The notes beneath the pieces are model-generated. The model saw only the letters and a program-made list of their open reading frames with translations. It was not told the origin of the DNA and ran no database searches. A stretch of 64,000 bases of DNA, from the NCBI GenBank assembly GCA_963704655.1, contig OY969927.1, positions 288,001 through 352,000 on the forward strand, read 5' to 3'. Positions within the stretch are counted from its first letter, which is position 1. Every line of letters starts with the position of its first letter. The DNA is from an uncultured Candidatus Babeliaceae bacterium (lineage in GTDB: Bacteria > Babelota > Babeliae > Babelales > Babelaceae). Positions 5,053 to 29,900 of this stretch are shown piece by piece. Made by a program: the position numbers and the translations under genes.

Positions 5053-8000
5053 ATGAAGCAATATCTTTATGCAGCAGTCGCTGCAGCCATGTTATGTGTA
5101 TCTTTACAAGCAGAAATAATCTCATTGGAACAGGCTTATGTGGTTTTACAAGAGCTTGAAATGTTCGCACAAGGCGATCAACTTGATGCATCGAGTGATA
5201 CTATTATGTTCGCGCTTGATGAACTTATAGGTTATCTTGAAAGTGATACACAGCTTTCAGCAGATGTTCGTTTGGATATTTCAAAAAAGATTAATCTGCT
5301 TGTTAAAAAAATTAATCTGCAGACACGTGCGCCACGTTTAGATGCACCAGAAATACGTGAAACTACAATACTTAATGAAAATTATTACCCAACGCGCGAT
5401 CTCTATTTACGCAACTTACTCATTACCGGCTCGCTTATTTTAAATGGCCAGCAGATCGGCGGTGGCGGCAGTGTGCCAAGTAATCTCTATGTATTAAAAG
5501 CTGGCGACACCATGACGGGCGATTTAACCATGGCAGACCAGCATGGCATTGTATTAGAAGATGCTTCTGGCGCCAATGCAATTACCGTGCAAGCCCCAAA
5601 TACTACCGAAACTTATAGCTTTACGTTGCCAGATAGTGCTGGCGCTGCAAACCAAGCGCTTACTACAGACGGCTTTGGGAATTTAACGTGGGCATCTGCG
5701 ATTGCAACAACCTCTGGATTACAAAGTATTAATAATCTCACAACACCGCACCAATATCTTCTTACCAGCACGGGGACATCAACTGCATTTCAGTTTATCG
5801 AAACAAGTTCTTCGCATATTTTAAATATTCCATACGTTCAGGATTCTAGCCAAGGGTATGGTCTTCTAGATTCTGCTGATTACAATAATTTTGTTAATGC
5901 CGCAAACATGGTTAATGCTGCAACCAGCGACGACGTTTGTGGCACACTTGTAAAGCGTGATGCTAATTGTAATTTTTCAGCTAATATAATTACGGCAACC
6001 GTAACGTATGCTAACTTTGCCTTAACGTCTTCAAGTGCATTAACGGCAGTAACATCAACAACGGCACAATATGCACAGGTAGCAAACAGCGCCAACTATC
6101 TTTGTGGCGTACCTGCATGTAATTTAGTAAGTACCTATTCACAAGTTCTTTCCGGGACAAGTTTTGATATTCCATTAACACTCGTCTTGCGTGATAGCAC
6201 CGGCAGCTTTGCAGCAACAACTATTACACTCACCGGTGAATTGTTGTTACAAAATGCAAATGGTAATCTAACAGCGCTTCAAGCAGGTGCGCAAAGTTTT
6301 GCTCCAGTGTATACACTGATATTGCCAACAACAATTGGTGGTGATAATCAGGTATTAACAACAGACGGTAATAACCCAGCAAATCTTTTTTGGCAGCCTG
6401 TTTCTGCAATTGTAACTTCTACAATTGAACTTTATGGCGATGTTATGGGGTCATCAACTGCAAATATCGTTAATACTATATGCGGACAAAGTGCATGTTC
6501 AATTGTTACCACCGTTACCACTGCAACAAGTGACAATATCTGTGGTACTTTGGTAAAACGTGACAGTAACTGTAACTTTTCTGCTAATTTAATTACTGCA
6601 ACGGTGACAAATGCACTTCTTTCACAAACAGCATTATATGCAACTAATGCGCTACTTTCGGTAACTTCGCAATATGCGCAAAACGCAGGTTCGACTAACT
6701 TTGCTTACACGTCATCGCTTGCACAATATGCACAGGTAGCAAACAGTGCCAACTATCTTTGTGGTGTGCCTGCATGTAATTTAGTAAATACATATTCACA
6801 GGTACTTTCCGGGACAAGTTTTGATATTCCATTAACACTCGTCTTGCGTGATAGCACCGGCAGCTTTGCAGCAACAACTATTACACTCACCGGTGAATTG
6901 TTGTTACAAAATGCAAATGGTAATCTAACAGCGCTTGAAGCTGGTGCGCAAAGTTTTGCTCCAGTCTATACATTAATATTGCCAACAACAATTGGTGGTG
7001 ATAATCAGGTATTAACAACAGACGGTAATAACCCAGCAAATCTTTTTTGGCAGCCTGTTTCTGCAATTGTAACTTCTACAATTGAACTTTATGGCGATGT
7101 TATGGGGTCATCAACTGCAAATCATGTTGCATTTGTATGTGGCGTGCCTGCATGTGCACTCGCACAAACGTATTCAACGGTTCTTTCAGCAACTGCATGT
7201 GATATTCCACTCACGCTTATATTGCGTGACAGCACGGGCAGCTTTGCGGCAACAACTATTACACTCACGGGAAACAGTTTAATAAATTACAGCTCTGTCG
7301 GCGGATGCAACACTGGAGCTGGCTTTGTCTTTGCTCCGACAAAACAAAACACCATTATCGGGCTTGGTGCTGGTAATAATAACGTTCTCACTGGAACATC
7401 AAACATTGCAGTTGGATATCAGGCACTTGCAAAAAATACTTCTGGTTATAATAATGTGGCTCTTGGATTTAAGGCACTTGCAAATGGCAATACGATCAAT
7501 AACTTTGACAATATCGCCATTGGCGCCAATACGCTTTCTGGCGCATCTATTTTAGGTGATAACGTTGCAGTTGGAACAAATGCGCTTTCTGCGTCGGGTT
7601 ATACCGGCGGGCAGCAGATAGCAATTGGAACGGGTGCGTTACAAGCAAATACCACCGGTACTGGAAACATCGCAATTGGTTATGATGCATTACAAACAAA
7701 TACAAGTGGGGTAAATAATATAGCAATAGGCGCTTATGCACTGAGTAAGTTAAACTATAACCTACCGTTTCTTGGTATACCTAGCGGGGCAAATAATATT
7801 GCTATAGGCTCCAATGCATTAAGTAATATAGCTATAGCTGGTGAAAATGTCGCTATAGGCTCAAATACCTTACAGAATGGATCTTTTTCATACGGAAATG
7901 TTGCTATTGGTTATAACGCATTTGTTTTTGGCAATTCAGCATTCAATGTGGCTGTTGGTAATTCGAGTATGGTCAGCAATAATACGGGCGCAAGCAACAC

Positions 8001-10941
8001 AGCTGTTGGTTATTATTCACTTTCTGGTAACATAAGTGGCAATAGCAATACAGCTATAGGTTCTTATTCACTTTCTGGTAACATAACTGGCTTTAATAAC
8101 ACTGCAGTTGGTTATAATGCTCTAACGGCTTCAGTTGGCAGTGACCTTACTGCTGTGGGAGCTCAAGCTTTACAAAATAATACCTTAGGTACTCAAAACG
8201 TTGGCGTGGGTTATAGCGCACTACAAGACAATACTATAGGATCTAATAGTACTGCTGTTGGATACAATGCTCTTATCAATGCAGTAAGCTCAAACAATAA
8301 TACTGCCATTGGTAATTTTACACTTAACAATGCGGCTGTTGGTTCAGACAATACCGCTGTTGGTAATCAGGCTCTATCAAATACCCAAACAAGTTCGTTG
8401 GTTGGAATAGGTTCTGGTGCGCTATTCAATAATAGCACCGGCGCACAAAATGTTGCTGTTGGTTATTATGCACTTAATGCAAATACAACTGGTGGATCAA
8501 ACACTGCGTTAGGATACAATGTGCTCAACCAATCAACCGGCAGCAATAACACGGTAGTCGGCGCAAACTCTGGCACCGGCATAACATCTGGAGCACATAA
8601 TATTTATCTTGGTGACAGCATTAATAATGGCAATGAAAGTAATACTATACGAATTGGCAACAGTAACCAAACTGAAGCATATGTTGCGGGCATTTATGGA
8701 ACATCATTACCAAGTGGTTCACCTGTTGTTGTTACATCAAGTGGCCAGCTTGGCATCGGTTCTTCAACAACAGTCACCGGCACCAGCTGCGATACAGCAC
8801 TCACGTTTATATTGCGTGACAGCACGGGCAGCTTTGCAGCAACAACCGTCACACTCACCGGCCACAGCTTAATTAATTACAGCTCTGTGGGCGGGTGCGA
8901 TACGGGCGCTGGCTTTGTCTGGGCGCCAACAAACCAAAATACTATTATCGGCTTAAACGCAGGAAATAATAATGTCATTACTGGCACATCAAACGTTGCT
9001 TTAGGCTACCATGCACTTGCAAATGCAAAAACTATAAATAACTTTGACAATATAGCTATCGGCGCATTTACCCTTACTGGAACTGCCGTGCTTGGCGACA
9101 ATATCGCAATTGGGGTGAATGCCCTTTCAAATGTGAACTATAACAAAGGCCAGCAGATTGCTATTGGTACTGGAGCATTGCAAAATAATACAAGCGGTAT
9201 ACAAAATACTGCAGTGGGTTATTATGCGTTAAACTTAAATACAACCGGAACATCAAACGTCGCTCTAGGTTATAATGCTGGAAGTGGTTTAATTACTGGT
9301 ACAGGGAACATTATCATTGGCGCATATACCGCCCAAGGTTTAACCTCTGGAGCAAATAATATTATTATCGGGCAAGGCGCTACCGCAGCAGCATCAACCG
9401 CAAGTAATAATACTACTATTGGTACACTTGTAGGTGTTAATAGTACCTCGAGTAATAATGTCGTAGTTGGTTATCAAGCATTACAAAATGATACGGCCGG
9501 AAACCAAGTTGCTGTTGGATATCAAGCATTACAAAATAACACTGACGGTTCACAAAATACTGCTGTTGGGTACCAAGCGCTTAATGCGAATACTACTGGA
9601 ACATCAAATGTGGCTCTTGGGTTTAAGGCACTTGCAAATGGCAATACTATCAATAATTCTCGCAATATAGCAATTGGGGCCAATGCCCTTTCTGGATCTG
9701 CCGTGCTTGGTGACAATGTCGCAATTGGGGTGAATGCACTTTCAAATGTGAACTATAACCAGAAGCAGCAGATAGCTATCGGAACAGGTGCATTGCAAGA
9801 TAATACAAACGGTACGCAAAATATTGCTATAGGATATCAAGCGCTTAATGCAAATACTGGGTCAGGACAGAACGTTGTTATAGGGACCGAAGCATTATCA
9901 TCTGTTAATGATGCTAGTTCGTTTTCTAATGTAGTAATAGGGCATCAAGCTCTACAAACTGGGAACAATACCATATATGAAAACGTGGCCATTGGTTATC
10001 AAGCAATGCAAGCGAATAATGCTAGTGCCCAATGCGTTGCTATCGGTTGTCAGGCACTTCTAAATAATCAAAATCCGTATATAACCGCTATAGGTTATCA
10101 GGCACTTCAAATGAATAATGCGGGAGCGCTAAACACGGCAGTGGGAGCAGGTGCATTAAGTCAATCAAGTGGTCAAGCTAACAATACAGCCGTGGGCTAT
10201 AGTGCATTAGCTAATAATTCCAATGGTAATAATAATACCGCGGTGGGTACTTATGCTTTATCCGGAGGAGCTGTAAGTACTGGTTATTACAATGTTGGAG
10301 TTGGGGTTGGGGCTGGTACACAAATAACATCTGGAAATTCAAATACGCTTATTGGTTGTATCGCAGGTACAAATCTTGACTCAGGCAACAATAATACCAT
10401 GATTGGTTATAATACAGGCGGCAGCGTTACTACTGGAAACAACGTTATTGTTATTGGAGCAGGCCTGCCCGGTTCAAACACTGCAAACAGCACATATATA
10501 GCTGGCATTTCTGGGGCAACGGCAAGTGGTGGCGTAGAGGTATATTGTAATACCAGCAGTCAACTTGGAACTGTTAATTCTTCTCGACGTTATAAAGAAA
10601 ATATTAAGGACCTAGGTAATTTTTCAGATAATATCTATAAATTACGTCCCGTGCAATTTAATTACATAAGTGATCAAGAAAAGTGGTTTGAAGCTGGTTT
10701 AATAGCAGAAGAAGTAGAGGATGTTTATCCAGAAATAATTGTTTATAACAAAGATGGTGAAGTTGAAACGATACGCTATAAACAGGTGTATATGATGATG
10801 CTTAATGAACAGCAAAAAGATCATGCACGCATTGCCACCCTTGAAGATCAATGTAGTGCATTGCAACAAACCAATAACCTGATGTCCGCACAGATCGCCG
10901 ATCTCCAAGCAAAAATTGAGATGTTATTAGCAAAGGCATAA
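5053..10941 (+). CDS. Secreted 1962-aa mosaic fibre protein with C-terminal S74-like chaperone
   Basis: Signal peptide; tail-fibre-like motifs (YVLKAGDTMTGDL; TLPDSAGAANQALTTDGFGNLTW); head-like repeats; SSRRYKENI at 10579. Confidence 0.85.
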   Translation: MKQYLYAAVAAAMLCVSLQAEIISLEQAYVVLQELEMFAQGDQLDASSDTIMFALDELIGYLESDTQLSADVRLDISKKINLLVKKINLQTRAPRLDAPEIRETTILNENYYPTRDLYLRNLLITGSLILNGQQIGGGGSVPSNLYVLKAGDTMTGDLTMADQHGIVLEDASGANAITVQAPNTTETYSFTLPDSAGAANQALTTDGFGNLTWASAIATTSGLQSINNLTTPHQYLLTSTGTSTAFQFIETSSSHILNIPYVQDSSQGYGLLDSADYNNFVNAANMVNAATSDDVCGTLVKRDANCNFSANIITATVTYANFALTSSSALTAVTSTTAQYAQVANSANYLCGVPACNLVSTYSQVLSGTSFDIPLTLVLRDSTGSFAATTITLTGELLLQNANGNLTALQAGAQSFAPVYTLILPTTIGGDNQVLTTDGNNPANLFWQPVSAIVTSTIELYGDVMGSSTANIVNTICGQSACSIVTTVTTATSDNICGTLVKRDSNCNFSANLITATVTNALLSQTALYATNALLSVTSQYAQNAGSTNFAYTSSLAQYAQVANSANYLCGVPACNLVNTYSQVLSGTSFDIPLTLVLRDSTGSFAATTITLTGELLLQNANGNLTALEAGAQSFAPVYTLILPTTIGGDNQVLTTDGNNPANLFWQPVSAIVTSTIELYGDVMGSSTANHVAFVCGVPACALAQTYSTVLSATACDIPLTLILRDSTGSFAATTITLTGNSLINYSSVGGCNTGAGFVFAPTKQNTIIGLGAGNNNVLTGTSNIAVGYQALAKNTSGYNNVALGFKALANGNTINNFDNIAIGANTLSGASILGDNVAVGTNALSASGYTGGQQIAIGTGALQANTTGTGNIAIGYDALQTNTSGVNNIAIGAYALSKLNYNLPFLGIPSGANNIAIGSNALSNIAIAGENVAIGSNTLQNGSFSYGNVAIGYNAFVFGNSAFNVAVGNSSMVSNNTGASNTAVGYYSLSGNISGNSNTAIGSYSLSGNITGFNNTAVGYNALTASVGSDLTAVGAQALQNNTLGTQNVGVGYSALQDNTIGSNSTAVGYNALINAVSSNNNTAIGNFTLNNAAVGSDNTAVGNQALSNTQTSSLVGIGSGALFNNSTGAQNVAVGYYALNANTTGGSNTALGYNVLNQSTGSNNTVVGANSGTGITSGAHNIYLGDSINNGNESNTIRIGNSNQTEAYVAGIYGTSLPSGSPVVVTSSGQLGIGSSTTVTGTSCDTALTFILRDSTGSFAATTVTLTGHSLINYSSVGGCDTGAGFVWAPTNQNTIIGLNAGNNNVITGTSNVALGYHALANAKTINNFDNIAIGAFTLTGTAVLGDNIAIGVNALSNVNYNKGQQIAIGTGALQNNTSGIQNTAVGYYALNLNTTGTSNVALGYNAGSGLITGTGNIIIGAYTAQGLTSGANNIIIGQGATAAASTASNNTTIGTLVGVNSTSSNNVVVGYQALQNDTAGNQVAVGYQALQNNTDGSQNTAVGYQALNANTTGTSNVALGFKALANGNTINNSRNIAIGANALSGSAVLGDNVAIGVNALSNVNYNQKQQIAIGTGALQDNTNGTQNIAIGYQALNANTGSGQNVVIGTEALSSVNDASSFSNVVIGHQALQTGNNTIYENVAIGYQAMQANNASAQCVAIGCQALLNNQNPYITAIGYQALQMNNAGALNTAVGAGALSQSSGQANNTAVGYSALANNSNGNNNTAVGTYALSGGAVSTGYYNVGVGVGAGTQITSGNSNTLIGCIAGTNLDSGNNNTMIGYNTGGSVTTGNNVIVIGAGLPGSNTANSTYIAGISGATASGGVEVYCNTSSQLGTVNSSRRYKENIKDLGNFSDNIYKLRPVQFNYISDQEKWFEAGLIAEEVEDVYPEIIVYNKDGEVETIRYKQVYMMMLNEQQKDHARIATLEDQCSALQQTNNLMSAQIADLQAKIEMLLAKA
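6064..7120 (+). repeat. Internal direct repeat, ~400-bp near-identical blocks 657 bp apart
   Basis: CGTGATAGCACCGGC at 6190 and 6847; duplicated peptide AQYAQVANSANYLCGVPAC...GDVMGSSTAN. Confidence 0.9.
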
Positions 10942-11064: not shown

Positions 11065-11958
11065 ATGATGCAGATGTATAAAAAAATATTTTTTTTAATC
11101 GTAGTGTGTGTGTCGCTTTTTCATGCGCGGGATTCTCATGCTCTGGATATGATTTCTTTTATTATGCCCTGTTATAATGCAGACAAATTAGAACATGCGC
11201 TTGCAAGTATTTATCGGCAAAAAATAGATTGCCCGTTTGAAGTTATCTGTTGTGACGATGGCTCGACAGATGATACCTTTAAAAGGCTTTTAAGTTGTAA
11301 GCGAATGTACCCAAATCTTAAAGTGGTTCGCCATGGTACCAATAAAGGTGCCGGCGCTGCAGCAAATACCTGTGTACAATACAGCAAGGGTAAGTGGTTA
11401 TACCGATTAGATTCTGATAATATGTTGCCCGAACCAGAGCTTGAAGTGATTAATAAGTTAGTTGCACTTTTAGAGAGCAGTGGGTGCGATGCGGCTATGG
11501 TTGAAACGATGGTGCTCTTTGAAGGTGACAGAAATATTAAAGCGCTGTGGCGCTATGAATCAGCAAGTGGTATGTGTGACCTTGAACATTGTATTACCGT
11601 GCCACATGATCCTGCAATGTCAGGTAATTTTTTAATGCGCAAAAGTGCCTATCTGCGCGTAGGCGGTTACCCAGAGGATCACGGTTCTGATACCTTTAGA
11701 TTCGGCTTTAAATTATATGCAACCGGTGGCAAAGTGGCGATTTTACGCGGTGCGTGGTACTGGCACTTTTATAACCCACATGGTTACTGGTGGCGCGAAC
11801 AAAAATCAGGTAATAATGACGCTAAAGCGTTGCAGACCGTTATGGAACATAAAGATCTTTTTACACGCACTTCGCAACGGTATTTACATGATGCGCAAAT
11901 GGGAAAAACAACACTATTTTTATTGATACATAATAAATTACTTCAATTAAAAAACTAA
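11065..11958 (+). CDS. Glycosyltransferase family 2 (GT-A) with N-terminal hydrophobic leader
   Basis: ISFIMPCYN, EVICCDDGSTD, NKGAGAAAN, and DSD (DxD) motifs. Confidence 0.9.
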   Translation: MMQMYKKIFFLIVVCVSLFHARDSHALDMISFIMPCYNADKLEHALASIYRQKIDCPFEVICCDDGSTDDTFKRLLSCKRMYPNLKVVRHGTNKGAGAAANTCVQYSKGKWLYRLDSDNMLPEPELEVINKLVALLESSGCDAAMVETMVLFEGDRNIKALWRYESASGMCDLEHCITVPHDPAMSGNFLMRKSAYLRVGGYPEDHGSDTFRFGFKLYATGGKVAILRGAWYWHFYNPHGYWWREQKSGNNDAKALQTVMEHKDLFTRTSQRYLHDAQMGKTTLFLLIHNKLLQLKN

Positions 11959-12046
11959 TAGTATATTTAAAATATAATGCATTATATTGGTATTTTGGTA
12001 AAATGGTTATATAAAAAAATTATAACCATTTTTACCTGAGTACTCT

Positions 12047-12520
12047 ATGAAAACATTGTATTTATTTTTAGTATCTGTAGTAATTTTGAGCATTTCAGCC
12101 ATGCAGCATGAAGAATTTTTTATTGCCCCGACTTTGGAAAATGATAAATTGTCATTGTTTCAAGAAGTATGTGGCCGTAATGATAAAGATTTTCTCTGCA
12201 ATTTACATGATGAAATTGAGCAATTGACTCCGGAGATAAGACAGAAGATAGACGAAGAAATAAACCGGCTAGAATTTCAAGTTGCTGGTTTGTCTGACAA
12301 TAAACCTGCCTTATTGACGGTAAATTCGAAGCTTATGTTTTTTGAGAGAAAACGATTAAATATTTCGATTGCGGCTATTTATGCACAAAATGTTTTAGAG
12401 TTGTATAAGCAATTTCCGTTGTGTGAGAGTAGTGACAACAATGCTAGCTTAATCCAGAGTTCTCTCAAAAATGCTCGTTTAATAATGCTACAAAATAAAT
12501 CTTTGCTTAGATTTTATTAA
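12047..12520 (+). CDS. Hypothetical secreted protein
   Basis: 157-aa ORF with signal-peptide-like N-terminus. Confidence 0.65.
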   Translation: MKTLYLFLVSVVILSISAMQHEEFFIAPTLENDKLSLFQEVCGRNDKDFLCNLHDEIEQLTPEIRQKIDEEINRLEFQVAGLSDNKPALLTVNSKLMFFERKRLNISIAAIYAQNVLELYKQFPLCESSDNNASLIQSSLKNARLIMLQNKSLLRFY

Positions 12521-12522
12521 TA

Positions 12523-12630
12523 TAACGTGAGTTCGATGAAAAGCCTTTTAATTTAAGCAATTTTTGATCCCGTCAGTATCATGGAGCGCTATGTGCTCTA
12601 CTGGTGCGTTTAGCGCACTATTTTCGGGCT
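12523..12630. mobile_element. Truncated MITE copy with one IS982-like end
   Basis: Starts TAACGTGAGTTCGA and shares GT(A/G)TCATGGAGC(G/A)CTATGTGCTCTACT with 25018-25105. Confidence 0.6.
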
Positions 12631-12647
12631 TAATGATGATTAAGATG

Positions 12648-13487
12648 TTAGCGATTGTTTGTAAACTTAAAAAGCGTCTCAGCATTTGCACTGGTGATGC
12701 GTGCAACGTCTTCTATGTTGCTCTGTGTAAGTTCAGCGATATAGTCCGCAATGGTCGCAATCTGTTCAGGTGAATTTGTTTTGCCGCGAATAACTTGTGG
12801 CGGCAAAAATGGCGCATCTGTTTCTAACACAATATGTTCAACACCAACAGTTTTAACAATCTCACGCAATGCATTATTTTTTGGATAGGTCACCGTGCCA
12901 CCAATTCCCAAAAACCATCCCCATGCGGTGACCGCTTGTGCAAATTGCATGTCATTAGAATAACAATGAATCGTTACTCTTTTTAATTGATCTTTATACT
13001 GCTCAAGAACCGCGTAGGTTTCGTCTTGCGCGTCGCGGGTGTGGACGACAAGCGCTTTGTCATAGTGAAGCGCTAGCTCGATTTGTGCCCTAAATAAATC
13101 GATTTGCGCGGTGATGTTATAATCCGGGTAATGTTTATCAAGTCCACATTCGCCAACGCCAACAATTTTTTCATGATGCGACGCAAGAAGATTTTTTAAA
13201 AAGAGAGCATCTTCTTTCCAATTTCCTTGTGCTTCATGAGGGTGTATTCCGACAACGGAGGAGACAGTTTCAAAAAGTTTTGCAATTTCTATTGCTAAAG
13301 CGCTGTCGATTTTAGTGGTGCCAATTTCTATAATATGGGTAACATTCTTGAGTGAGGCTTGATGTAGAATTTTACGAATCTCTTGAATCTCATTGTCTGA
13401 AAATGCGCTTATAGACGTTTTATCGATCATGTGTAAAAGATGGCAGTGGGTGTCGACAAGTTGAAAAGCAGAATCGTATTTTTTCAT
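12648..13487 (-). CDS. tatD: TatD family DNase
   Basis: VDTHCHL, VGIHPH, VGECGLD, VVHTRDA, IHCYS, VLETDAPFL motifs. Confidence 0.95.
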   Translation of the reverse strand: MKKYDSAFQLVDTHCHLLHMIDKTSISAFSDNEIQEIRKILHQASLKNVTHIIEIGTTKIDSALAIEIAKLFETVSSVVGIHPHEAQGNWKEDALFLKNLLASHHEKIVGVGECGLDKHYPDYNITAQIDLFRAQIELALHYDKALVVHTRDAQDETYAVLEQYKDQLKRVTIHCYSNDMQFAQAVTAWGWFLGIGGTVTYPKNNALREIVKTVGVEHIVLETDAPFLPPQVIRGKTNSPEQIATIADYIAELTQSNIEDVARITSANAETLFKFTNNR

Positions 13488-13687
13488 GAAGTTTCTCTTT
13501 ATGTTATAAATTTTTTTTAGTTTTTATTGACAAAGTATTAAATGAAATTAGTATATTTTAGTGGTCATAATAAGCTATGTGTTATATGCAAGTCAATTAA
13601 TACCTAGTTTATCTGATCACAAGCAGTGTTACAAACAAAAAAAATGTGAGTGTGACTCACAATAACCTATATCTCAAGGAGCGTCTT

Positions 13688-13966
13688 ATGAATAAGACTG
13701 AGTTAATAGATTCGTTAAGCGAAGAAACAACTTTCAGCAAAAAAGATATTACTCGTGTACTCGATGCGTTAACACGCATTGTTATGCGTACATTAAAAAA
13801 GGGTAATAAATTACAATGGTCTGGCTTTGGAACATTTTCTTTAGCACAGCGTCCAGAACGTAATGGAATTAATCCTGCTACTAAAGAAAAAATTCGTCTT
13901 CCACAAACGAATGTTCCTAAGTTCAAAGCAGGTAAAAACTTCAAAGAAGCTGTACGCCAAGTTTAA
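13688..13966 (+). CDS. hup: HU family DNA-binding protein
   Basis: MNKTELID...GFGTFS...RNGINPATKEKI...PKFKAGK; AAGGAG RBS before ATG at 13688. Confidence 0.95.
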   Translation: MNKTELIDSLSEETTFSKKDITRVLDALTRIVMRTLKKGNKLQWSGFGTFSLAQRPERNGINPATKEKIRLPQTNVPKFKAGKNFKEAVRQV

Positions 13967-14003
13967 GTAGATGTTGCTTTAAATATCAAGCTTTTACCCT
14001 TTC

Positions 14004-14030
14004 AAAAAGCCGCTTTTATAGCGGCTTTTT
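14004..14030 (+). terminator. Intrinsic terminator after hup
   Basis: AAAAAGCCGCT-ttt-ATAGCGGCTTTTT hairpin. Confidence 0.8.
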
Positions 14031-14032
14031 CT

Positions 14033-14061
14033 TTGCATCTTTCATTTTTTTCAAGTATTCT
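14033..14061 (+). promoter_or_regulatory. Putative sigma70 promoter for serS
   Basis: TTGCAT-17 bp-TATTCT. Confidence 0.45.
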
Positions 14062-14068
14062 TTATGGT

Positions 14069-14211
14069 GTCATTCCGGACCTATAAGTGTCATCCCGGAC
14101 TTGCCTGTCCGCCATAGCCCTTCGGCAAGCTCAGGAGTAAACCCGAGGTGACGGCTGGGATCTGGGATCTTATACGTTAATTAAGAGACCCTGAGACACG
14201 CTCAGGGTGAC
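14069..14211. repeat. Composite, nested REP-like palindrome cluster in the serS leader
   Basis: GTCAT(T/C)CCGGAC twice; 14186-14211 is the exact reverse complement of 15609-15634. Confidence 0.8.
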
Positions 14212-14235
14212 TAGTGAAATTAAGAAAGAGCCTCT

Positions 14236-15474: not shown

Positions 15475-15492
15475 AACACAGTTTTCATAATC

Positions 15493-15521: not shown

Positions 15522-15608
15522 CTGGCGTGTGCGTTATTGTATATTCTTTGGTGGCACATCATGTGTCAGCCGAGCGAGTCACAGGCTCTCTTTGGCGTTA
15601 TACCACGT

Positions 15609-20652: not shown

Positions 20653-20664
20653 TATAATATACGT

Positions 20665-20731
20665 GTCACCATGGACTCGTTTCAGAGTCTCTTTATTAGC
20701 GAATAAGATGCTGAACCACGTTCAGCATGAC
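20665..20731. repeat. Inverted REP doublet (BIME-like)
   Basis: GTCACCATGGACTCGTTTCAGAGTCT ... AGATGCTGAACCACGTTCAGCATGAC, same family as 15609. Confidence 0.7.
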
Positions 20732-20768
20732 AATGCGGACAAGTAGGTATTGAAATAAAGTTTTATGT

Positions 20769-20845
20769 GGCGGCGTAGCTCAGCTGGTTAGAGCGACGGA
20801 ATCATAACCCGTAGGTCCGGGGTTCGAGTCCCTGCGCCGCCACCA
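20769..20845 (+). tRNA. tRNA with CAT anticodon, probably elongator tRNA-Met
   Basis: GGCGGCG/CGCCGCC acceptor (paired 1-72, so not initiator), loop ATCATAA, GGTTCGAGTCC, CCA. Ile2 is not strictly excluded. Confidence 0.9.
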
Positions 20846-20975
20846 TCTTGCGCATATCCACGCCTGCAAACTTGGCATGCTACAGATGGCGGGCCATATT
20901 CGGGCCTTATATAAAGTAAATTTACAGTTCCAAAAGTGTCATTCTAGTACTTAGATAAATAAAGTATTCAATACT

Positions 20976-21000
20976 CGCTCATCCTGAGCGTGTCGAAGGG
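20976..21000. repeat. REP-like palindrome (family C)
   Basis: CGCTCATCCTGAGCGTGTCGAAGGG; relatives at 19151-19176 and 14118-14142 (reverse). Confidence 0.65.
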
Positions 21001-21012
21001 TTAGCGAAATTA

Positions 21013-21525
21013 ATGAACATATCCCTTATTTTTACTCTCTTACGTCTTTTTCTTTCGCCATTACTCTTGGCGCCACTTATCGCGCTGCAAGCGCCTGTTC
21101 TTCTTACTTTTTCTTTGTATGTCTTTTTAGCATTAACAGATTTTTTTGACGGTTTTTTTGCGCGTAAATTTAATCAAGTTAGTGGGTTAGGTGCGTTTCT
21201 TGACCAATTTGCCGATAAGATTTTTCTCTTCTCTGTTGTTTTTGCAACATTGTATACGCATCAATTGCCATTACATATCGCGTTATTGTTAGCGTTTCGT
21301 GAACTTGGGGTTATGGGCATGCGTGAGTATGGTATGCAAAAAAATATCCAATTGCCTGTTATTTTTTCAGCAAAATTAAAAACGGCGTTTCAGATGATTC
21401 TTTTTGGCTGGATTATTTTAAATCAGCACTTTCCTGGAGCAGAATATATCACCGCGTCTCTCTTTTTTATTACCATTGGATTATCGTATTATTCTGCATA
21501 TTTTTATGTAAGAAAATTTTTGTAA
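21013..21525 (+). CDS. pgsA: CDP-alcohol phosphatidyltransferase (PgsA-like)
   Basis: TDFFDGFFARKFNQVSGLGAFLDQFADK signature. Confidence 0.85.
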   Translation: MNISLIFTLLRLFLSPLLLAPLIALQAPVLLTFSLYVFLALTDFFDGFFARKFNQVSGLGAFLDQFADKIFLFSVVFATLYTHQLPLHIALLLAFRELGVMGMREYGMQKNIQLPVIFSAKLKTAFQMILFGWIILNQHFPGAEYITASLFFITIGLSYYSAYFYVRKFL

Positions 21526-21587
21526 TTTTCATGCTGCGGTATGGTATACTAATTGTAACGTAAAGCTATTTAAAAATTGGATTATCT

Positions 21588-23357
21588 ATGAAATTTCAAG
21601 AAGTAGTATCTGTCTTTGAGTCTATAGAAAAACTGGCGTCACGTAATGCTATCATGGAACTTCTAGCAGATATTTTCAAGCGCGCTACGCCTCATGAAGC
21701 ACAAATGCTTACCTATCTTTCTGTTGGGCAGGTTCGCCCGACCTATTTAGGGAGCCAGTTTAATATTGCCGATAAGACACTTAAAAAAGTTATTCAAGAG
21801 ATCACTCAGCTTTCACCAACTGATTTTGCGCATCAAGTAAAAGAGTTTGGTGATCTGGGGACGTTGTTGGCTGCACAAAGTTGGCAACCGAATGAAACCC
21901 TGACACTTAAATATGTCTTTGATGCTCTTGTCGAGTTACAAACTATCTCTGGCGAAGGTTCACAAGATGTACGTGCACAATTCCTGGAAAAGCTTTTGCG
22001 CCAATTGAGTCCTGCCGGCGCAGGCTTTGTGGTACGTATTATTTTAGGTAAACTGCGTACCGGATTTTCTGATATGACCATTATTGATGCATTCTCTTGG
22101 ATGCTTGCCGGTAATAAAAGCCTAAGCAAAGAGATCGAGCATGCCTATAATGTCTGTGCCGATTTGGGGCTTATTGCCTATACGTTAAAAAAAGATGGGC
22201 AAGCGGGTCTTGAACATATTCATATTACCGTTGGTATACCTATTTTGCCCTCACTTGCAGAACGTTTGGCAACAGCGTTAGAGATTGTCGATAAATTGGG
22301 TCACTGTGCCGCACAGCCAAAACTTGATGGGTTTAGACTCCAAGTGCATATTGTGCATAGTGACAAAACCAAAGGACCGAAGGTCTATTTTTACTCACGT
22401 AATTTAATAAACATGACGCATATGTTTCCCGATCTTACCCGCGCAGCTGAAAAGCTGCCAGTTGAAGATGCGATCTTTGAAGGTGAAGCTATTGTCTTTG
22501 ACGAGTCAACCGGGGCATTTCTGCCTTTTCAAGAGACGGTAAAACGTAAACGAAAACATGACATTGAAACTGTTGCACAAGAGTTCCCTTTAAAACTTTT
22601 TGTTTTTGATCTTTTGTATCTTAATGGTGAATCGATGCTCAATAAAGGGCACGAAACCCGCAGAAAAGCAGCGCTTACATTTTTATCAGCTGATCATGCC
22701 GATACTCTTTCATTAATCGATGAGCGTGAGGTTAACACACCACAAGAGCTTGAAGATTATTTTCTTGAATGCATAGAAGAGGGTCTTGAAGGTTTGGTGG
22801 TAAAAAAAATGAATGCGCATTATCAGCCGGGTAAACGAAATTTTAATTGGATAAAACTAAAACGTACACAAGAGTCCGGAACGCTTACTGACACTATCGA
22901 CGCAGTAGTTTTAGGCTATTATCATGGCCGCGGAAGACGTGCCGCTTTTGGCATCGGCGCCTTTTTAATTGGCGTTTATGACAAAAAACATGACCGTTTT
23001 GAAACACTTGCTAAAGTGGGTACCGGGCTTTCCGACCAGGGCTTTAAAGATATAAAAAAAATGTGCGATGGAATAAAAATTGATCATAAACCTTTTAATG
23101 TAGTTTGCGCAAAAGAGCTTTTTCCCGATGTTTGGGTGGTACCAAAGCTTGTGTGGGTAGTTATTGCTGATGAAATTACTCGTTCACCACTGCATACAGC
23201 TGGCAAGACAGAACATGAATTGGGCTATGCCTTACGTTTTCCACGGGCGATTGAATATCGTGCGGATAAAGATGAAAATCAAGCCACTACGGTTGATGAA
23301 ATAATTCATATGTTTAATAATTCGCATCTTAAAAAAGCTGAAAATAGAAAACAGTGA
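21588..23357 (+). CDS. ATP-dependent DNA ligase with N-terminal DNA-binding domain
   Basis: KLDGFR adenylation motif, FEGEA, FDLLYLNG, EGLEGLVVK, WIKLK, ALRFPR. Confidence 0.93.
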   Translation: MKFQEVVSVFESIEKLASRNAIMELLADIFKRATPHEAQMLTYLSVGQVRPTYLGSQFNIADKTLKKVIQEITQLSPTDFAHQVKEFGDLGTLLAAQSWQPNETLTLKYVFDALVELQTISGEGSQDVRAQFLEKLLRQLSPAGAGFVVRIILGKLRTGFSDMTIIDAFSWMLAGNKSLSKEIEHAYNVCADLGLIAYTLKKDGQAGLEHIHITVGIPILPSLAERLATALEIVDKLGHCAAQPKLDGFRLQVHIVHSDKTKGPKVYFYSRNLINMTHMFPDLTRAAEKLPVEDAIFEGEAIVFDESTGAFLPFQETVKRKRKHDIETVAQEFPLKLFVFDLLYLNGESMLNKGHETRRKAALTFLSADHADTLSLIDEREVNTPQELEDYFLECIEEGLEGLVVKKMNAHYQPGKRNFNWIKLKRTQESGTLTDTIDAVVLGYYHGRGRRAAFGIGAFLIGVYDKKHDRFETLAKVGTGLSDQGFKDIKKMCDGIKIDHKPFNVVCAKELFPDVWVVPKLVWVVIADEITRSPLHTAGKTEHELGYALRFPRAIEYRADKDENQATTVDEIIHMFNNSHLKKAENRKQ

Positions 23358-23432
23358 GCTGGAGAGCGGTGTTACCATGGGCGTGTCTCAGTTCTTCAAG
23401 GATGGATATTTTAGTAGTCGTGAGTAATTTAG

Positions 23433-24056
23433 TTAATCGTGAATTAATTTATAAAACTTTTCAGCCTCAGCTGCTGGGTTAGCGGCAGAAGTTATCTCCT
23501 TGCCAATAACTATTGCAGCAGGGTTAAGTTCGATAATTGTAGGTAAGGTTTCAGGTGAGATATTGCCCGAAATATATACCGGCAATGGTGTGTTACCCTT
23601 AACCATATCCCAGGTTTCCAAAAAGGTAAGTTGAGAAGAATCTTGTGTTGGCATAGGCAATAATAATGCATCAACACCAAAACTTTTAGCTTCGAGTGCA
23701 GATTGCCCTAATGAGCTTGCATCGATAAGATCAAGCATCACCTTTTTGCCGCGTTCATGTGCAGCATTGCATGCGCTATGTATCACATTGCGACGCGTGC
23801 CTGCAAGAACTGTTACCCAGTCTGCTCCAGCATCTGAACATAAAAGAGTTGCCTCTTTTGCGCGATCGGCGATTTTTACATCAGCAAGAATCGTTTTGTG
23901 GGGAAACTGCTGTTTAAAGCGTGTTACTGCCTGCATGCCGTTTTTGTAGATAAGCAGAGAGCCGACCTCAAAAATATCAGCGTATTTTTCTATGCTCTGC
24001 GCGATTGAAAGGGCGGTTTCAAGATCTGTAAGATCAAATGCAATGTGCAACTTCAT
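23433..24056 (-). CDS. 3-hexulose-6-phosphate synthase / OMP-decarboxylase-fold protein
   Basis: MKLHIAFD, FEVGSLLI, ILADVKIAD, GADWVTV, IVIGKEITSAANP. Confidence 0.8.
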   Translation of the reverse strand: MKLHIAFDLTDLETALSIAQSIEKYADIFEVGSLLIYKNGMQAVTRFKQQFPHKTILADVKIADRAKEATLLCSDAGADWVTVLAGTRRNVIHSACNAAHERGKKVMLDLIDASSLGQSALEAKSFGVDALLLPMPTQDSSQLTFLETWDMVKGNTPLPVYISGNISPETLPTIIELNPAAIVIGKEITSAANPAAEAEKFYKLIHD

Positions 24057-24140
24057 ATCTTAATAATCCTTTAGTGGTACCTGAAAATGGTCGAATACTT
24101 CAAAAAAAGTATAGCAGCAACTAGAATAATTATCTATTAT

Positions 24141-24872
24141 TTATGCTTTAATTGCTTGCGCAAAAGATTGCGGTTCAACCTTTTTCTCAATAACCAATGG
24201 CGCAAAAAAGCGGTTAATCTTTAAAAATTTTAAAACGCAAAATGGCGTATCGATAGATGTATGCACAAAGATATCGGGTAATATGAAATTCGGCCCAGGG
24301 ACACTTTCATGGGTACCTTGTGTAATTTCTATATCTTTTGGTTTTGCCATAATAATAAGTGCGTGACTGTCTATCTGTGATTTTGCCGGACGTTCAAGCT
24401 GTGTGATATTCCAGTACCATTTTTTATGCTGTTCATCATGCTTAAGATTATAACGGTAAAATGTGGCATTAACTTCTTCTGGAACTTCAAAATGGTGCAC
24501 CGTGTTCCCCTGGAACATTACCGGGTATATCTGGCTTGTTACCACTACCGTTAAAGAATTACTGCTTTCTTTATTGGGCAACAGTATTTCGCCCTGATAA
24601 TCGGTATATGTTATATACCCTACATAATTAACATAAACTCCCTGTACTAAGGGACTTGTTAAATGGCGCTGTAATATCATGTTGCTGATATCGGCATGCG
24701 AGCTGATAAGTCCAGTTAATTTGTCTGCGGGGAACTTTTTAGCGCATGCGGGGTTGCTGGCGCAGGGCACCATAAAAAAGCTGATAACATGTGGCGTTGG
24801 CGCAGATTGCCCATAGGTTGTAAGCGGTATAAAACTACTTAACCAAAAAAGAAGAAATAAGATTTTTTTCAT
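24141..24872 (-). CDS. Hypothetical secreted protein
   Basis: Signal peptide; GGGGGAAG RBS upstream of ATG at 24872. Confidence 0.7.
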   Translation of the reverse strand: MKKILFLLFWLSSFIPLTTYGQSAPTPHVISFFMVPCASNPACAKKFPADKLTGLISSHADISNMILQRHLTSPLVQGVYVNYVGYITYTDYQGEILLPNKESSNSLTVVVTSQIYPVMFQGNTVHHFEVPEEVNATFYRYNLKHDEQHKKWYWNITQLERPAKSQIDSHALIIMAKPKDIEITQGTHESVPGPNFILPDIFVHTSIDTPFCVLKFLKINRFFAPLVIEKKVEPQSFAQAIKA

Positions 24873-25017
24873 TGACACTTCCCCCCAGAAATAGACTATT
24901 TGCTTTCAGTTTACTTAATTACAATGGCAGATTGCAACTTTTAAATAAGATCCCACCCATTTTTATTAATTACCAAATGTTAACTAGACTTAACATATAG
25001 TTCAACTAAGTGTTAAT

Positions 25018-25316: not shown

Positions 25317-26771
25317 TTACTCACCAGTTCTTTTTGCCTGAACCTTTCCCGTTCCAAAAAGCCTTTGGAATAGAGTTTTTTCCTTTTTCTCTTCTTCCTC
25401 TTGCTCTTGCTCAGGCTCAAGGTTTGCTTGTGAAGATGATGCTGATGTTTTTGCCGGCTTACGCTCAGGTTCATGGCCAGCGAGTCTCGATGTAACACGT
25501 TCATAACTCTGAGTTGAAGCAATGTTTTTGCGACTTTTAATTATTGCATTTTTTTGTGCTTGACTCATAAGACCTTCAAGTATAGCCTTTTCAAATTCAT
25601 CCCCAGAAAGCCTTAAGGCCTTTTGAGCATGACCAATTGCAAGAGCATATTCCTCTTTATTAAAATATATCTTTGCTAATTCAGACTCTACATAAAAGTT
25701 CTTATCAGTTTTTAATGTAGCATCTTTAAGTATAAGAAACACTTCGTCCTCAATGTCTTTTTGTGAGCGTTGTGACTTATTTTCACGTATTTCGCGAACT
25801 CTTATTGCATAAGATTCATTTTTAAGTGCACCAGACAATTCCAGAGCCTGTGTTTTTAAATGTTCAGGTGCCAATGGTATTGCATAATCTATATATTTTT
25901 TTGCTAAATCCAAGTTCCCGTTTTCATAATATAATTTTGCTAAATTATACTCTACATTATAAAGGGAATGGTTAGTTCTTTTACTCGCTTGCAAAAGCAA
26001 CTGCAAAGCTTCATTCTTTAAGCTAAGGCGCTTTGTTACATCATTTTCTTGCTCAGCATTACCTAGAATGATTAATGCTTGCGATGCAAGATCAAGAGCC
26101 TCTTTATCCCAAATCTCTTTGGCTTTTCCTTTGCCACGAGCAGCTTCTTTGGCTAATTGAGCACGATATAGCTTTTCTTTGCTTGCTAACCATTTTTTAT
26201 GTTTTGGCTCCAAGTCTAAAGAATAACGCGTACCAGATAAATTTTTATATTTCCCATCTTTTATAATATCAAGTAAAATTTGTGCAAATGTAGTAGTATC
26301 CTCTTTTTGCAACTGTGCAAGCAGAAAAAGCTCATCATAACATTTAACTATTTTGAAAGAATATACTTTTACACTTTCTGGATCTTGCTCTTGGCCTTTT
26401 TGATAATATTCCTTGACAGCTTCAGCTGCTTTAATTTTTGCAATATACCCAGGAATACTATTTGTGTGCGCCTCAGCAGCCTGCTTTAACGTTTGCAAGG
26501 CCTCAGTTTTTCTATTTGCTTTATTAAGAGCTAAAGCATTTTCATAAAGAAGCTCAGGCTCTTGCTTTTGTGCTGGTATAAACATACGGTTACCACTGCT
26601 TGAACTGGCAACAGTTTTTTGTGTTACTACAGGCATTCGGCTACTACTACTACTACTACTTGAACCTGCTTGACGATAATCACCTAAAAGATCTAAATCG
26701 AACTCACCGGCAAAAGCTGGTGCACTAGCATATAACGCTAGCAGATATACTTTATTTTTCATATTCTTCAT
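25317..26771 (-). CDS. Secreted TPR-like helical repeat protein
   Basis: AAGGAGAG RBS; signal peptide, poly-Ser; TPR-like YNLAKLYYENGNLDLAKKYIDYAI and ELAKIYFNKEEYALAIGHAQKAL. Confidence 0.75.
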   Translation of the reverse strand: MKNMKNKVYLLALYASAPAFAGEFDLDLLGDYRQAGSSSSSSSSRMPVVTQKTVASSSSGNRMFIPAQKQEPELLYENALALNKANRKTEALQTLKQAAEAHTNSIPGYIAKIKAAEAVKEYYQKGQEQDPESVKVYSFKIVKCYDELFLLAQLQKEDTTTFAQILLDIIKDGKYKNLSGTRYSLDLEPKHKKWLASKEKLYRAQLAKEAARGKGKAKEIWDKEALDLASQALIILGNAEQENDVTKRLSLKNEALQLLLQASKRTNHSLYNVEYNLAKLYYENGNLDLAKKYIDYAIPLAPEHLKTQALELSGALKNESYAIRVREIRENKSQRSQKDIEDEVFLILKDATLKTDKNFYVESELAKIYFNKEEYALAIGHAQKALRLSGDEFEKAILEGLMSQAQKNAIIKSRKNIASTQSYERVTSRLAGHEPERKPAKTSASSSQANLEPEQEQEEEEKKEKTLFQRLFGTGKVQAKRTGE

Positions 26772-26904
26772 AACACTCTCCTTAATGGCCATATAATATC
26801 CTATTTATTCACTCTATTTCTCTATTTTTTTCAGCTTAAACAAAGCGTAAACGCAGAGTCAACAATTTCAAATATATATTTATAGAAATTCCCCTAATAC
26901 CTTT

Positions 26905-29900
26905 CTATGCCACCAACTTCTCTATTTTTGTTTGAAGATCAGCAATTTGCTCCTGCATAGTCGCAATTGTTTCCTTATAACATATTTCTAACGTCTCTAA
27001 ACGTTTTCTATAGTCAAGTAACATTGCACGATCTTTTTGCAGCTCATTAAGCATCATCAAAGGGATATACTGATATTGCACTGTTTGAGGCTGTCCATAA
27101 GCATCCTTAATAACAATGCCAGGATAGATTTCTTCAACCTCTTCAGCAATAAGACCATATTCTAGATGATCTTCATAACCATCCCAAATATAATTAAATG
27201 TTACCGGGCGTAGCTTATGCAGATCTTCTGTAATATTATCCATATCTTGAATATTTTTCTTAACACGTCGCGTTGATGCTGTTGTACCAAGCTTTCCATT
27301 AGACCCTATGCTAACTGCTGCTCCCCCTGTGGTATAGGTCTGTCCAAAGATACCTTGAATATAACAAGCACCCGAGCCCGCACCATACAGAGCTCCTATA
27401 CGAATCGTATCACTTTCAGCTGTGGATGTTGTTATTGCACCAGCATATACGTTGGCACCAATATAAATATTACCCGTACCTGTCAATAAATTTGTTCCAG
27501 CATTATAACCAATAGCAACATTATTTGTGCCAGTAGTTAAAGCAGCAAGTGCATCGGCGCCAATTGCGGTGTTATTGCCCCCATAGGTGATCGTGCCACT
27601 CAATTTAGTAAGTGCATAACATCCGACAGCAACGTTATTGACACTTGCAGTATTTGCAGCAAGTGTTTGGTGCCCAATAGCAACGTTAGATGTGCCGGTG
27701 GTGTTTGCATTTAATGCATAATACCCAACAGCGGTATTTTGAATGCCAGTAGTAGCATTTGCTAATGCACCTGAACCAACTGCGGTGAGCTGACTTGCTG
27801 TACTATTTGCCAGAGCATTTGTACCAATTGCTGTATTATCATTGCCACTAATATTAATGGTTAATGCTTCATTTCCAAGCGCCACATTGTTTGACCCAAT
27901 GGTATTTGCATCTAATACTTGGTAACCGATACCAACGTTTGCCGTGCCTGTGGTATTAAATTGTAACACGCCGGTTCCAATACCAGTTTGCTGGCCGCCA
28001 GTATAGTTTGCGCTTGATAATGCGTTATAACCAATAGCAATATTATCACCAAGTATACTTGCTCCGGAAAGTGCAAATGCGCCGATGGCAATATTGTCAA
28101 AGTTATTTATAGTTTTAGCATTTGCAAGTGCTTGATAACCAATTGCAACGTTTGATGTTCCGGTTGTATTTGCATTAAGCGCATAATACCCCTCAGCATG
28201 ATTTTGTACACCACTCGTGTTATTTTGCAATGCACCAGTACCAATAGCAATCTGCTGACCCTTATTATAGTTTGCGCTTGATAATGCGTTATAACCAATT
28301 GCTATATTATCACCAAGCACTGCAGTTCCGGTTAATGTAAATGCGCCAATGGCAATATTGTCAAAGTTATTAATTGTTCTTGCATTTGCAAGCGCTTGGT
28401 AACCAATTGCAATATTTGAAGTTCCGGTGGTATTTAAGTTTAATGCATTGAAACCAACTGCGGTATTTTGAATGCCAGTAGTAGCATTTGCTAATGCACC
28501 TGAACCAACTGCGGTGAGCCGACTTGCGGTGCTATTTGCCAGAGCATTTGTACCAATTGCCGTATTATCATTGCCACTAATATTAATGGTTAATGCTTCA
28601 TTTCCAAGCGCCACATTGTTTGACCCAATGGTATTTGCATCTAATACTTGGTAACCGATACCAACGTTTGCCGTGCCAGTGGTGTTAAACTGTAACACGC
28701 CCGTCCCAATAGCAGTCTGCTGGCCCTTTGTGTAGTTTGCGCTTGATAATGCGTTATAACCAATTGCGATATTATCACCTAAAATAGATGCCCCAGAAAG
28801 CGTATTTGCACCGATAGCAATATTATCAAAGTTATTTGCAGTGTTAGCATTTGCAAGCGCTTGGTAACCAAGTGCGGTGTTATTGAACCCAGTAATATTA
28901 GCATTTAATGCATAATAACCAACGGCAACATTTTGTGCGCCGGTGGTATTATTGAATAATGCACCAGAACCTATTCCAACCAACGAGCTTGTTTGGTTAG
29001 TTGATAAAGCCTGGTTACCAACTGCGGTATTGTCTGAACCAACAGCCGCATTGTTAAGTGTTAAATTTCCGATGGCAGTATTATTGTTTGAAAATTGTGA
29101 TAATGACAGCGCATTGAATCCAACAGCAGTATTATTAGACCCTGATGTATTTGATTGTAAGGTACTATAACCCACGCCAACGTTTTGAGTGCCTAAGGTA
29201 TTATATTGTAAAGCTCCAGACCCCACAGCAGTAAGGGCATTGCCAACTGAAGCCGTGAGAAGAGCATTATAACCAACTGCAGTGTTATTAAAGCCAATTA
29301 TGTTACCAGAAAGTGAATAAGAACCTATAGCTGTATTGCTATTGCCAGTTGTGTTACCAGAAAGTGAATAGTAACCAACAGCTGTGTTGCTTGCGCCCGT
29401 ATTATTGCTGCCCATACTCGAATTACCAACAGCCACATTGAACGCTGAATTGCCAAAAACAAATGCATTATAACCAATAGCAACGTTTCCGTATGAAAAA
29501 GATCCATTCTGTAAGGTATTTGAGCCTATAGCGACATTTTCACCAGCTTGAATTATATTACTTAATGCATTGGAGCCTATAGCAATATTATTTGCCCCGC
29601 TAGGTATACCAAGAAACGGTAGGTTATAGTTTAACTTACTCAGTGCATAAGCGCCTATTGCAATATTATTTACCCCACTTGTATTTGTTTGTAATGCATC
29701 ATAACCAATTGCGATGTTTCCAGTACCTGTAGTATTTGCCTGTAACGCGCCCGTTCCAATTGCTATCTGCTGCCCGCCGGTATAACCCGACGCAGAAAGC
29801 GCATTTGTTCCAACAGCGATGTTATCACCTAAAATAGATGCGCCAGAAAGCGTATTTGCCCCAATTGCAATATTGTCAAAATTATTAATACCTGCAGCAT

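Follow-up and report, generated by a model that had tools for sequence, protein, structure and literature searches.

Several families of paralogous surface proteins, among them pilE/pilS of Neisseria, babA/babB of Helicobacter and mgpB/MgPar of Mycoplasma genitalium, undergo ectopic gene conversion, and in Campylobacter fetus an inversion between sap homologues moves a promoter. Switches driven by an invertase are known from the G segment of phage Mu with Gin, the C segment of phage P1 with Cin and the shufflon of plasmid R64 with Rci. IE3 of Neisseria meningitidis is described as an inversion between loci that encode a large and repetitive two-partner-secreted surface protein (PMC1797815), and phage T5 pb1 is presented as a tail fibre with a C-terminal intramolecular chaperone (PMC4690869). 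The locus compared with these systems in this work is located in a stretch of 64,000 nucleotides (nt), hereafter called the window, from the genome of an uncultured Babeliaceae bacterium (G000), and consists of two convergent genes coding for phage-tail-fibre homologues that carry an in-frame inverted repeat of about 1 kb, designated IR-a. The window corresponds to G000:C1:288001-352000; positions given as genome coordinates refer to the same contig, and all others are counted within the window. We consider it probable that IR-a is a recent ectopic gene-conversion tract between two paralogous surface-fibre genes and represents a latent substrate for inversion, not a dedicated switch.

One arm of IR-a (7495-8492, + strand) lies in fibre gene A (F5A; 5053..10941, + strand, 1962 aa), where it covers aa 815-1147, and the other (28889-29889, - strand) in the giant fibre gene (F6G; 26905..41244, - strand, 4779 aa), where it covers aa 3786-4119, with both arms delimited by repeat search, self-megablast and alignment. 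The repeat search returned them as two pieces, 7495-8123/29261-29889 (629 nt, 96% complementary) and 8290-8492/28889-29091 (203 nt, 91%), which are merged into one when the genome is compared with itself by megablast (7498-8492 vs 29886-28889, 92.2% over 1001 columns). In the global alignment the identity amounts to 95.9% in the 629-nt core, with 26 mismatches, and to 91.7% over 1001 columns, the longest exact run being 108 nt and the single indel, of 3 nt, being located outside the core. Both arms start at codon phase 0 and are in frame in both genes. The in-frame inverted repeat of about 1 kb between convergent fibre genes, which had been proposed in a sequence-only reading of this DNA, is thus borne out, as are its anchor positions: codon 897 of gene A begins at 7741 and codon 3868 of the giant gene (41244-26905) at 29643, and the sizes predicted for the two chimeras from a crossover at this point are arithmetically right (896+912=1808 aa and 3867+1066=4933 aa).

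According to the codon-level alignment, the three 20-codon blocks preceding aa 817 of gene A have a nucleotide identity of 45-61%, which rises to 92-100% at aa 817-1035 and is only 42-49% past aa 1156; inside the repeat it dips to 72-80% at 8218-8337 and then returns to 90-93%. In the core (aa 817-1035, ~219 codons) 16 codons differ synonymously, nine non-synonymously and there is one gap, so that synonymous as well as non-synonymous sites have been homogenised. The description of the arms as matching almost base for base, synonymous sites included, holds in that most synonymous sites are shared, and is slightly overstated in view of the 16 synonymously and nine non-synonymously different codons and the dip. 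No third DNA-level copy of the central ~680 nt of the module was found in the genome, and other paralogs match only its first ~225 nt and last ~85 nt, at 67-80%. The sharp edges, the mostly shared synonymous sites and the absence of a third copy of the module from the genome favour gene conversion, which the sequence-only reading had offered as its alternative and which best explains how IR-a arose.

A history with no exchange at all, in which old paralogs were held alike by strong purifying selection, would fit the protein-coding nature of the module and the 92% identity of its two copies at the protein level. Such selection, acting on the protein, neither preserves synonymous sites nor makes such edges, and since only 16 of the ~219 core codons are synonymously different and the flanks fall to 42-61% within one 20-codon block, we regard this explanation as very improbable.

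Relatives of the module elsewhere are distant. In the five genomes of the same genus used for comparison (G001-G005; the wider set consists of genomes of other genera in the family) the best match of the module protein is at most 49% identical over long stretches, and the whole 333-aa module likewise has relatives of at most 46% identity, both at 64 loci of viral contigs and among the best 80 of 129 matches to genome contigs. A protein scan of metagenome contigs with the distinctive 87 aa of the module gave six loci, all with 40% identity or less, and an exact 27-nt word from the identical IR-a core had no matches in metagenome contigs. For the polarity of the exchange this leaves neither a third copy in the genome nor a close outgroup copy by which donor and recipient could be told apart.

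Five public sequencing runs contain part of the stretch, with shares of 0.25 or less, and the two copies of IR-a exist as distinct sequences in the reads, since separate contigs of run X3 carry the letters of the giant gene and of gene A: one contig has all seven giant-copy letters expected for 7875-8071, and another, covering 7591-7741, has 0 of the five giant-copy letters expected there and thus represents the gene A copy. Run X3 is from the same study as the run with the largest share of the stretch and, as it may belong to the sequencing campaign behind the assembly, is possibly not independent of the latter. On positions 6000-25999 the runs X1, X2, X3 and X5 provide only contigs of 150-350 nt at 2-4x depth, and among the read pieces listed (132 further pieces exist) none bridges an arm edge, such short contigs being uninformative on orientation. 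The read joints listed have sides of 20-42 nt and come from repeats or other organisms. Read contigs at least 99% alike to the window make up 28 of 45 in X1, 37 of 59 in X2 and 8 of 26 in X3, and by their labels these three runs belong to two studies, one of soil metagenome and the other of marine metagenome. Since window-identical contigs are present in both the soil and the marine runs, the same or a near-identical strain was sampled by two or more studies, and the assembly may stem from one of these.

These reads also bear on the suggestion that IR-a is an assembly artefact, either a collapsed or duplicated repeat or a misjoin across it. Assemblers do fail at long fibre repeats, and the congener assemblies break at fibre genes. 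The arms, however, differ at 26 of the 629 core positions and by a 3-nt indel, the frames running through them stay open for 1962 and 4779 aa, each copy has its own X3 contig, and the orientation of the DNA between the arms agrees with that in G001, G002, G005 and the wider family, all of which makes an artefact a poor candidate with very little probability.

IR-a is one of several such tracts in the fibre genes. The fibre family of this genome comprises 11 long open reading frames (ORFs) of 909-4779 aa, nine of which lie within ~95 kb around the window, and occupies ~90 kb, roughly 7% of the genome DNA. The giant gene is the sole - strand member of the cluster, and for that reason its tracts shared with + strand paralogs are in-frame inverted repeats. 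Two of these are nested outside IR-a and, like it, are in frame. The first, IR-b, joins F4 (genome 286769-288141, i.e. window -1231..141 with only 1..141 inside the window, + strand) with the giant gene (30617..31989, - strand) over 1373 ungapped nt with 92.6% identity, reaching 99.7% in 300-nt windows, with exact runs of 243, 179 and 161 nt and codon phase 0/0; it is a better recombination substrate than IR-a. The second, IR-c, has its giant-gene arm at 32830..34154 (- strand) and its + arm in F4 outside the window (genome 284027-285352), with an overall identity of 85.2-85.8%, up to 97% in 300-nt windows, and a register offset that is a multiple of 3. F4 itself is a 2669-aa frame (genome 283385-291394) with an S74 domain, whose 3' part occupies window positions 2..3394 on the + strand.

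Direct partners share tracts of the same kind. Positions 4981..5562 (+ strand), i.e. the 72 nt upstream of gene A and its first ~510 nt, repeat the 5' region of F3 (genome 271226-811) with 93.2% identity over 586 columns and 90-99% in 150-nt windows. Sliding windows present gene A as a patchwork: both ends, the first 510 nt and the last ~400 nt, are 90-99% identical to F3, the partner of nt 2443-3440 is the giant gene, and further portions resemble F3 or F4 with 82-88% identity. In the giant gene, identity to F4 reaches 97% at nt 7201-7950 and 99.7% at nt 9301-10521, and a further tract of 93.6% identity is shared with Fy, a same-strand paralog located 490 kb away. Each gene therefore carries several tracts with different partners (F3 at both the 5' and 3' ends, the giant gene and F4 for gene A; F4 twice, gene A and Fy for the giant gene). 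Because the tracts link direct and inverted partners alike and identity falls stepwise towards their edges, repeated ectopic conversion is favoured over a device specific to inversion.

Both genes also contain near-perfect tandem duplications, namely 38518-39650 vs 39685-40817 (98.9%, 1133 nt) and 36820-37525 vs 37285-37989 (97%, 706 nt) in the giant gene and 6064-6465 vs 6721-7122 (97% over 402 nt) in gene A. These indicate very recent unequal recombination within the genes.

The process that we propose would copy stretches of 0.3-1.4 kb among members of the fibre family whatever their relative orientation, presumably with the RecA machinery of the cell. The genome does encode RecA (genome 405272-406063, 411 bits) as well as MutS. 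Where such a tract links the giant gene with a + strand paralog, a crossover in it would invert the 20-35 kb between the arms and at the same time exchange the C-terminal parts of the two genes, comprising shaft, tip and S74 domain.

Like the pilE/pilS, babA/babB and mgpB/MgPar families, the fibre genes show near-identity patches in otherwise diverged paralogs, with sharp edges and several donors per gene, and likewise the process would depend on general recombination and affect exposed proteins of host interaction. The differences are that the partners here are full-length and apparently expressible genes, not silent cassettes, and that the proteins are phage-tail-fibre homologues with an S74 chaperone in a Dependentiae-type host.

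The sequence-only reading had likened the locus to tail-fibre switching by the Mu G segment. The resemblance to the systems of Mu, P1 and R64 lies in the proposed outcome, i.e. alternative C-terminal receptor-binding parts being placed on a constant N-terminal part by inversion, and it ends there, since the locus lacks an invertase next to it, short crossover sites and alternative exons without a promoter, and so is not a member of this class. As that reading had stated, no invertase is encoded in the window: neither a recombinase nor an invertase was found by Pfam among its 30 ORFs. The nearest recombinases in the genome are more than 60 kb away, being two tyrosine recombinases at genome 389 kb and 530 kb (>60 kb and ~200 kb distant), and the sole serine recombinase is at 840.8 kb, ~500 kb distant. 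What the two genes share is a coding stretch of 1 kb, each of them is a complete ORF that has an ATG and an N-terminal leader to itself, and IR-a belongs to a set of three or more nested in-frame inverted tracts, which exist alongside several direct ones. The analogy was therefore not borne out, and a site-specific switch of the Mu, P1 or shufflon kind, in favour of which only the similar outcome of exchanged fibre C-termini can be cited, has next to no probability.

The DNA that an inversion at IR-a would turn around is mainly a housekeeping block of ~14 kb (11065..24878, assigned by Pfam and tRNA search). Its gene order is GT2, TatD (- strand), SerRS, a HemN-like radical SAM protein, a PNPOx-like protein, an ORF with no assigned function, a tRNA, SecD and a second tRNA, followed by CDP-alcohol phosphatidyltransferase, ATP-dependent DNA ligase, OMP decarboxylase (- strand) and another ORF with no assigned function (- strand). 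A TPR-repeat protein (25317..26792, - strand) with weak TPR matches separates the block from the 3' end of the giant gene; in the synteny comparison it has no counterpart at the same position in G003 or G004.

By synteny and GC skew, the orientation of the block in G000 is the ancestral one, since it is common to G001, G002 and G005 and the order from the left-flank gene to SerRS is kept in ten genomes of other genera. Contig G002:C43 (70.9 kb) is collinear with G000 219.5-363.5 kb through the block and both of its flanks, and in G001:C76 and G005:C1 the left flank is joined directly to the block in the same orientation as in G000. In the other genera, G006, G007, G009, G011, G015, G016, G019, G042, G047 and G049 carry the left-flank gene and SerRS in the same orientation and no more than 25 kb apart, and the ligase is next in order in six of these ten, i.e. 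wherever all three genes are located on one contig; the exceptions are G013 and G023, where the flank gene is far from the block, and G012, where the ligase is encoded on the strand opposite to that of the flank gene. The GC skew of the block in G000 ranges from +0.04 to +0.16, in agreement with that of the region beyond the giant gene.

The same comparison bears on the fibre genes themselves. G002:C43 keeps the order of ~140 kb of the G000 backbone without the three fibre islands (F1-F5; the giant gene; F7-F9), and G002 has five S74 matches on other contigs; since the backbone occurs without the islands in a genome that has S74 matches elsewhere, the fibre genes behave as movable islands. In G001 there is a separate break inside the block, beside fibre genes.

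The arrangement in G004 is different. Contig G004:C26 (56.1 kb) has the left flank in the + orientation up to the last flank gene, and ~90 nt further on there is the start codon of a fibre gene with a type-L N-terminus (blastp E 5e-9 to F1 and 0.38 to the giant gene). This + strand fibre is ~14 kb long, broken by frameshifts and has a single S74 match, and its end adjoins the ortholog of the window gene 24141-24878, after which the whole block follows inverted, with its internal order unchanged, as far as GT2. The last 120 nt of the contig contain the C-terminus of a - strand fibre adjoining GT2. The C-tail of the + strand fibre scores best with the giant gene (107 bits, vs 103 for F3 and 101 for F4), and the - strand tail matches F2 (58%) and F1 (54%) with no hit to the giant gene. 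Taken from gene order, this is the layout that would be expected after a crossover between a left + strand and a right - strand fibre gene. The GC skew is +0.02 to +0.10 in the flank and the + strand fibre and -0.005 to -0.14 in the inverted block, and because it is flipped on the block, the inversion would be recent in the G004 lineage. The block is thus forward in G000, G001, G002 and G005 and inverted in the assembly of G004, and fibre-to-fibre inversion probably occurs in the genus. This is also the outcome of the check that the sequence-only reading had suggested, a comparison of the orientation of the tatD-to-ligase block in related genomes, in which the inverted state was found in G004 only. 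As for the tip-swapping inversion itself, an inverted block with fibres at both ends and a flipped skew is present in the G004 assembly, but the block in G000 stands in its ancestral orientation with a skew that matches its flanks.

In G003 there are fibres on both sides of the block and four contig ends without exact overlap. The end of G003:C3 and the start of G003:C6, contigs from the two sides of the block region, carry 5' fragments of type-L fibres that are 88.7% identical over 755 nt. If the backbone layout of G000 holds, these fragments are oppositely oriented, and G003 would then add a second species in which the block is flanked by inverted fibre repeats. An interpretation of the right-hand fibre of G003 as a chimera of a gene A N-terminus and a giant-gene C-terminus was dropped, as each of its 120-aa windows best matches a different G000 paralog.

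Our locus resembles IE3 and the sap system of C. fetus in that inverted, large and repetitive surface-protein genes serve as recombination sites and that this is seen by comparing related genomes, the parallel in G004 being a break in or between fibre genes. Unlike in C. fetus, the arms of IR-a are located mid-gene in two convergent genes, and a crossover would swap C-terminal halves in frame instead of moving a promoter; unlike IE3, it would not be a mere relocation of loci, and the DNA between the arms is housekeeping.

It could be argued from the three nested tracts and from G004 that the locus is an active, reversible and RecA-driven "homology shufflon", in which these tracts flip 20-35 kb, the housekeeping genes among them, with appreciable frequency and reassort N-terminal halves (anchor and shaft) with tip and S74 halves. 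The three inverted tracts are in frame with exact runs of up to 243 nt, RecA is present, all the predicted chimeras are in frame, G004 has the predicted product architecture with a skew flip indicating a recent event, and G003 has its inverted pair of fibre 5' fragments (88.7%, 755 nt) on the two sides of the block region. Despite that, both orientations were never seen together and the assembled state is the ancestral one; conversion tracts are as common between direct paralogs, so nothing about them is specific to inversion; and an inversion would reverse SerRS, SecD, two tRNAs and the ligase relative to the skew that they now have. Crossover between diverged repeats is infrequent when MutS is present (homeologous recombination), and with MutS in this genome the 4-8% divergence of the arms leads us to expect a low crossover frequency. 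An active shufflon is therefore rather unlikely, and at the population level we are just as doubtful of its corollary that several fibre variants coexist, with the G004 arrangement as one frozen state.

Several points weigh against our preferred reading, that of gene conversion with a latent capacity for inversion. No data show recombination happening now, and the IR-a tract, being 4-8% diverged, is not very recent. From one sequence, gene conversion is indistinguishable from a double crossover, i.e. inversion followed by re-inversion. The genome of G004 is a 66%-complete, frameshift-rich metagenome-assembled genome (MAG), in which the ligase is in at least four pieces with stops, and its arrangement may be a misjoin at inverted fibre repeats; the right-flank genes MatE and GatA and 10 kb of right-flank DNA, and with them the reciprocal junction, were not found in this 66%-complete bin, and the C-tail of its + strand fibre is assigned to the giant-gene type by the small margin of 107 vs 103 and 101 bits. 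The orientation of the block in G003 is not fixed by the contigs, whose ends have no exact overlap. Finally, the signal peptide and the surface location of the fibres are predictions from sequence.

With regard to the proteins, gene A has a type-L N-terminus (a putative signal peptide) that is followed by a long shaft of repeats and, at the C-terminus, by a Peptidase_S74 chaperone, and the giant gene has a type-G N-terminus and a C-terminal S74 domain. In profile searches the S74 domain was located at 10579..10737 (+ strand; G000 298579-298737, 50.6 bits) in gene A and at 27112..27276 (- strand; G000 315112-315276, 48.3 bits) in the giant gene, and the Pfam family PF13884 was matched at aa 1843-1895 (E 3e-11, 43.8 bits) and aa 4657-4711 (40.2 bits), respectively, the cut-off being 22. 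In the PHROGs database gene A matches the tail spike phrog_4636 (E 7e-104); across gene A, the giant-gene tail and the repeat module the matches are to tail spike protein (phrog_4636, E down to 5e-104) and virion structural protein, and the long-tail-fibre distal subunit phrog_33119 is matched by both gene queries, not by the module alone. Gene A aa 1768-1911 also match the PDB entry 6f45_A "Long tail fiber distal subunit" (E 1e-4). For the repeat shaft and module no meaningful family was found in Pfam at E<=1 and none in NCBIfam.

Among the 11 fibre genes Peptidase_S74 is above the Pfam cut-off in nine, with 12 matches in total, three genes having two each. All members begin with a short basic and then a hydrophobic stretch, which can be read as a Sec signal peptide. 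The N-terminus is of type L in F1, F2, F3 and gene A and of type G in the giant gene, F4 and the G003 fibre beside GidB. By analogy with S74-bearing phage fibres, the proteins are predicted to be secreted and trimeric and to stand at the surface, with the C-terminal part as the distal receptor-binding end. They resemble such phage fibres, of which T5 pb1 is an example, in having a C-terminal S74 domain over the Pfam cut-off, PHROGs matches to tail spike and virion proteins and a PDB match to a distal subunit. Unlike phage fibres, they are encoded among the housekeeping genes of a cellular genome, have putative signal-peptide N-termini and form an 11-member family, three members of which have two S74 matches each. 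In the published sources, as far as their accessible parts go, our literature search found no relevant case linking Dependentiae with a tail fibre, S74 or endosialidase.

The two S74 matches are within one open frame in F1 (genome 265313/265862), F2 (270295/270844) and F8 (window 58434-58601 and 60690-60845). A Peptidase_S74 domain is normally single, located at the extreme C-terminus and cleaved off, so its doubling is unusual. F7 (52671-55400) and F9 (61034-64000+) have no S74 match and share a different tail (...LDYWYFHYTFNSRR / ...LDYAMYQYVYTSQR), and two F7-like genes are found at a synteny break in G001.

The genome of G000 is a single contig of 1,298,077 bp with 38.0% G+C and one bacterial 16S gene, and is 96% complete by marker genes. 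Its owner is taken, on its genus assignment, to be a Babeliaceae/Dependentiae-type bacterium. The sequence is a small cellular genome and not a phage, because the genes that separate and surround the fibre genes are the usual housekeeping genes of bacteria. Those recognised by Pfam in the window include SerRS, SecD, TatD, GidB, a GatA-type amidase, MreC, RecJ and ATP-dependent DNA ligase; no phage genes other than the fibres are recognisable by Pfam there, and several ORFs are without a family. The ligase (LigA_M/N/C type, 21588-23357) was found in 40 of the 41 related genomes searched, with full-length matches of 46-83% identity. A beta-propeller (lactonase-like) gene (3471-4829, - strand) stands alone on the opposite strand between F4 and gene A, within the fibre island. 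Dependentiae (Babeliales) are widespread intracellular parasites of protists.

The processes concerned, conversion and homology-driven inversion, are of known kinds, found here in an unusual protein family and lineage. For genome analysis they carry a warning, as the repeats in the fibre genes of these MAGs not only break assemblies but are also likely to be real endpoints of inversions. They also provide a testable case of a reduced genome making surface diversity by general recombination alone. Since the fibre genes swap modules and sit at rearrangement breakpoints within the genus, they are leading candidates for determinants of host range, and if the homology shufflon were true, host attachment would be diversified in an obligate protist parasite by means of phage-derived surface fibres.

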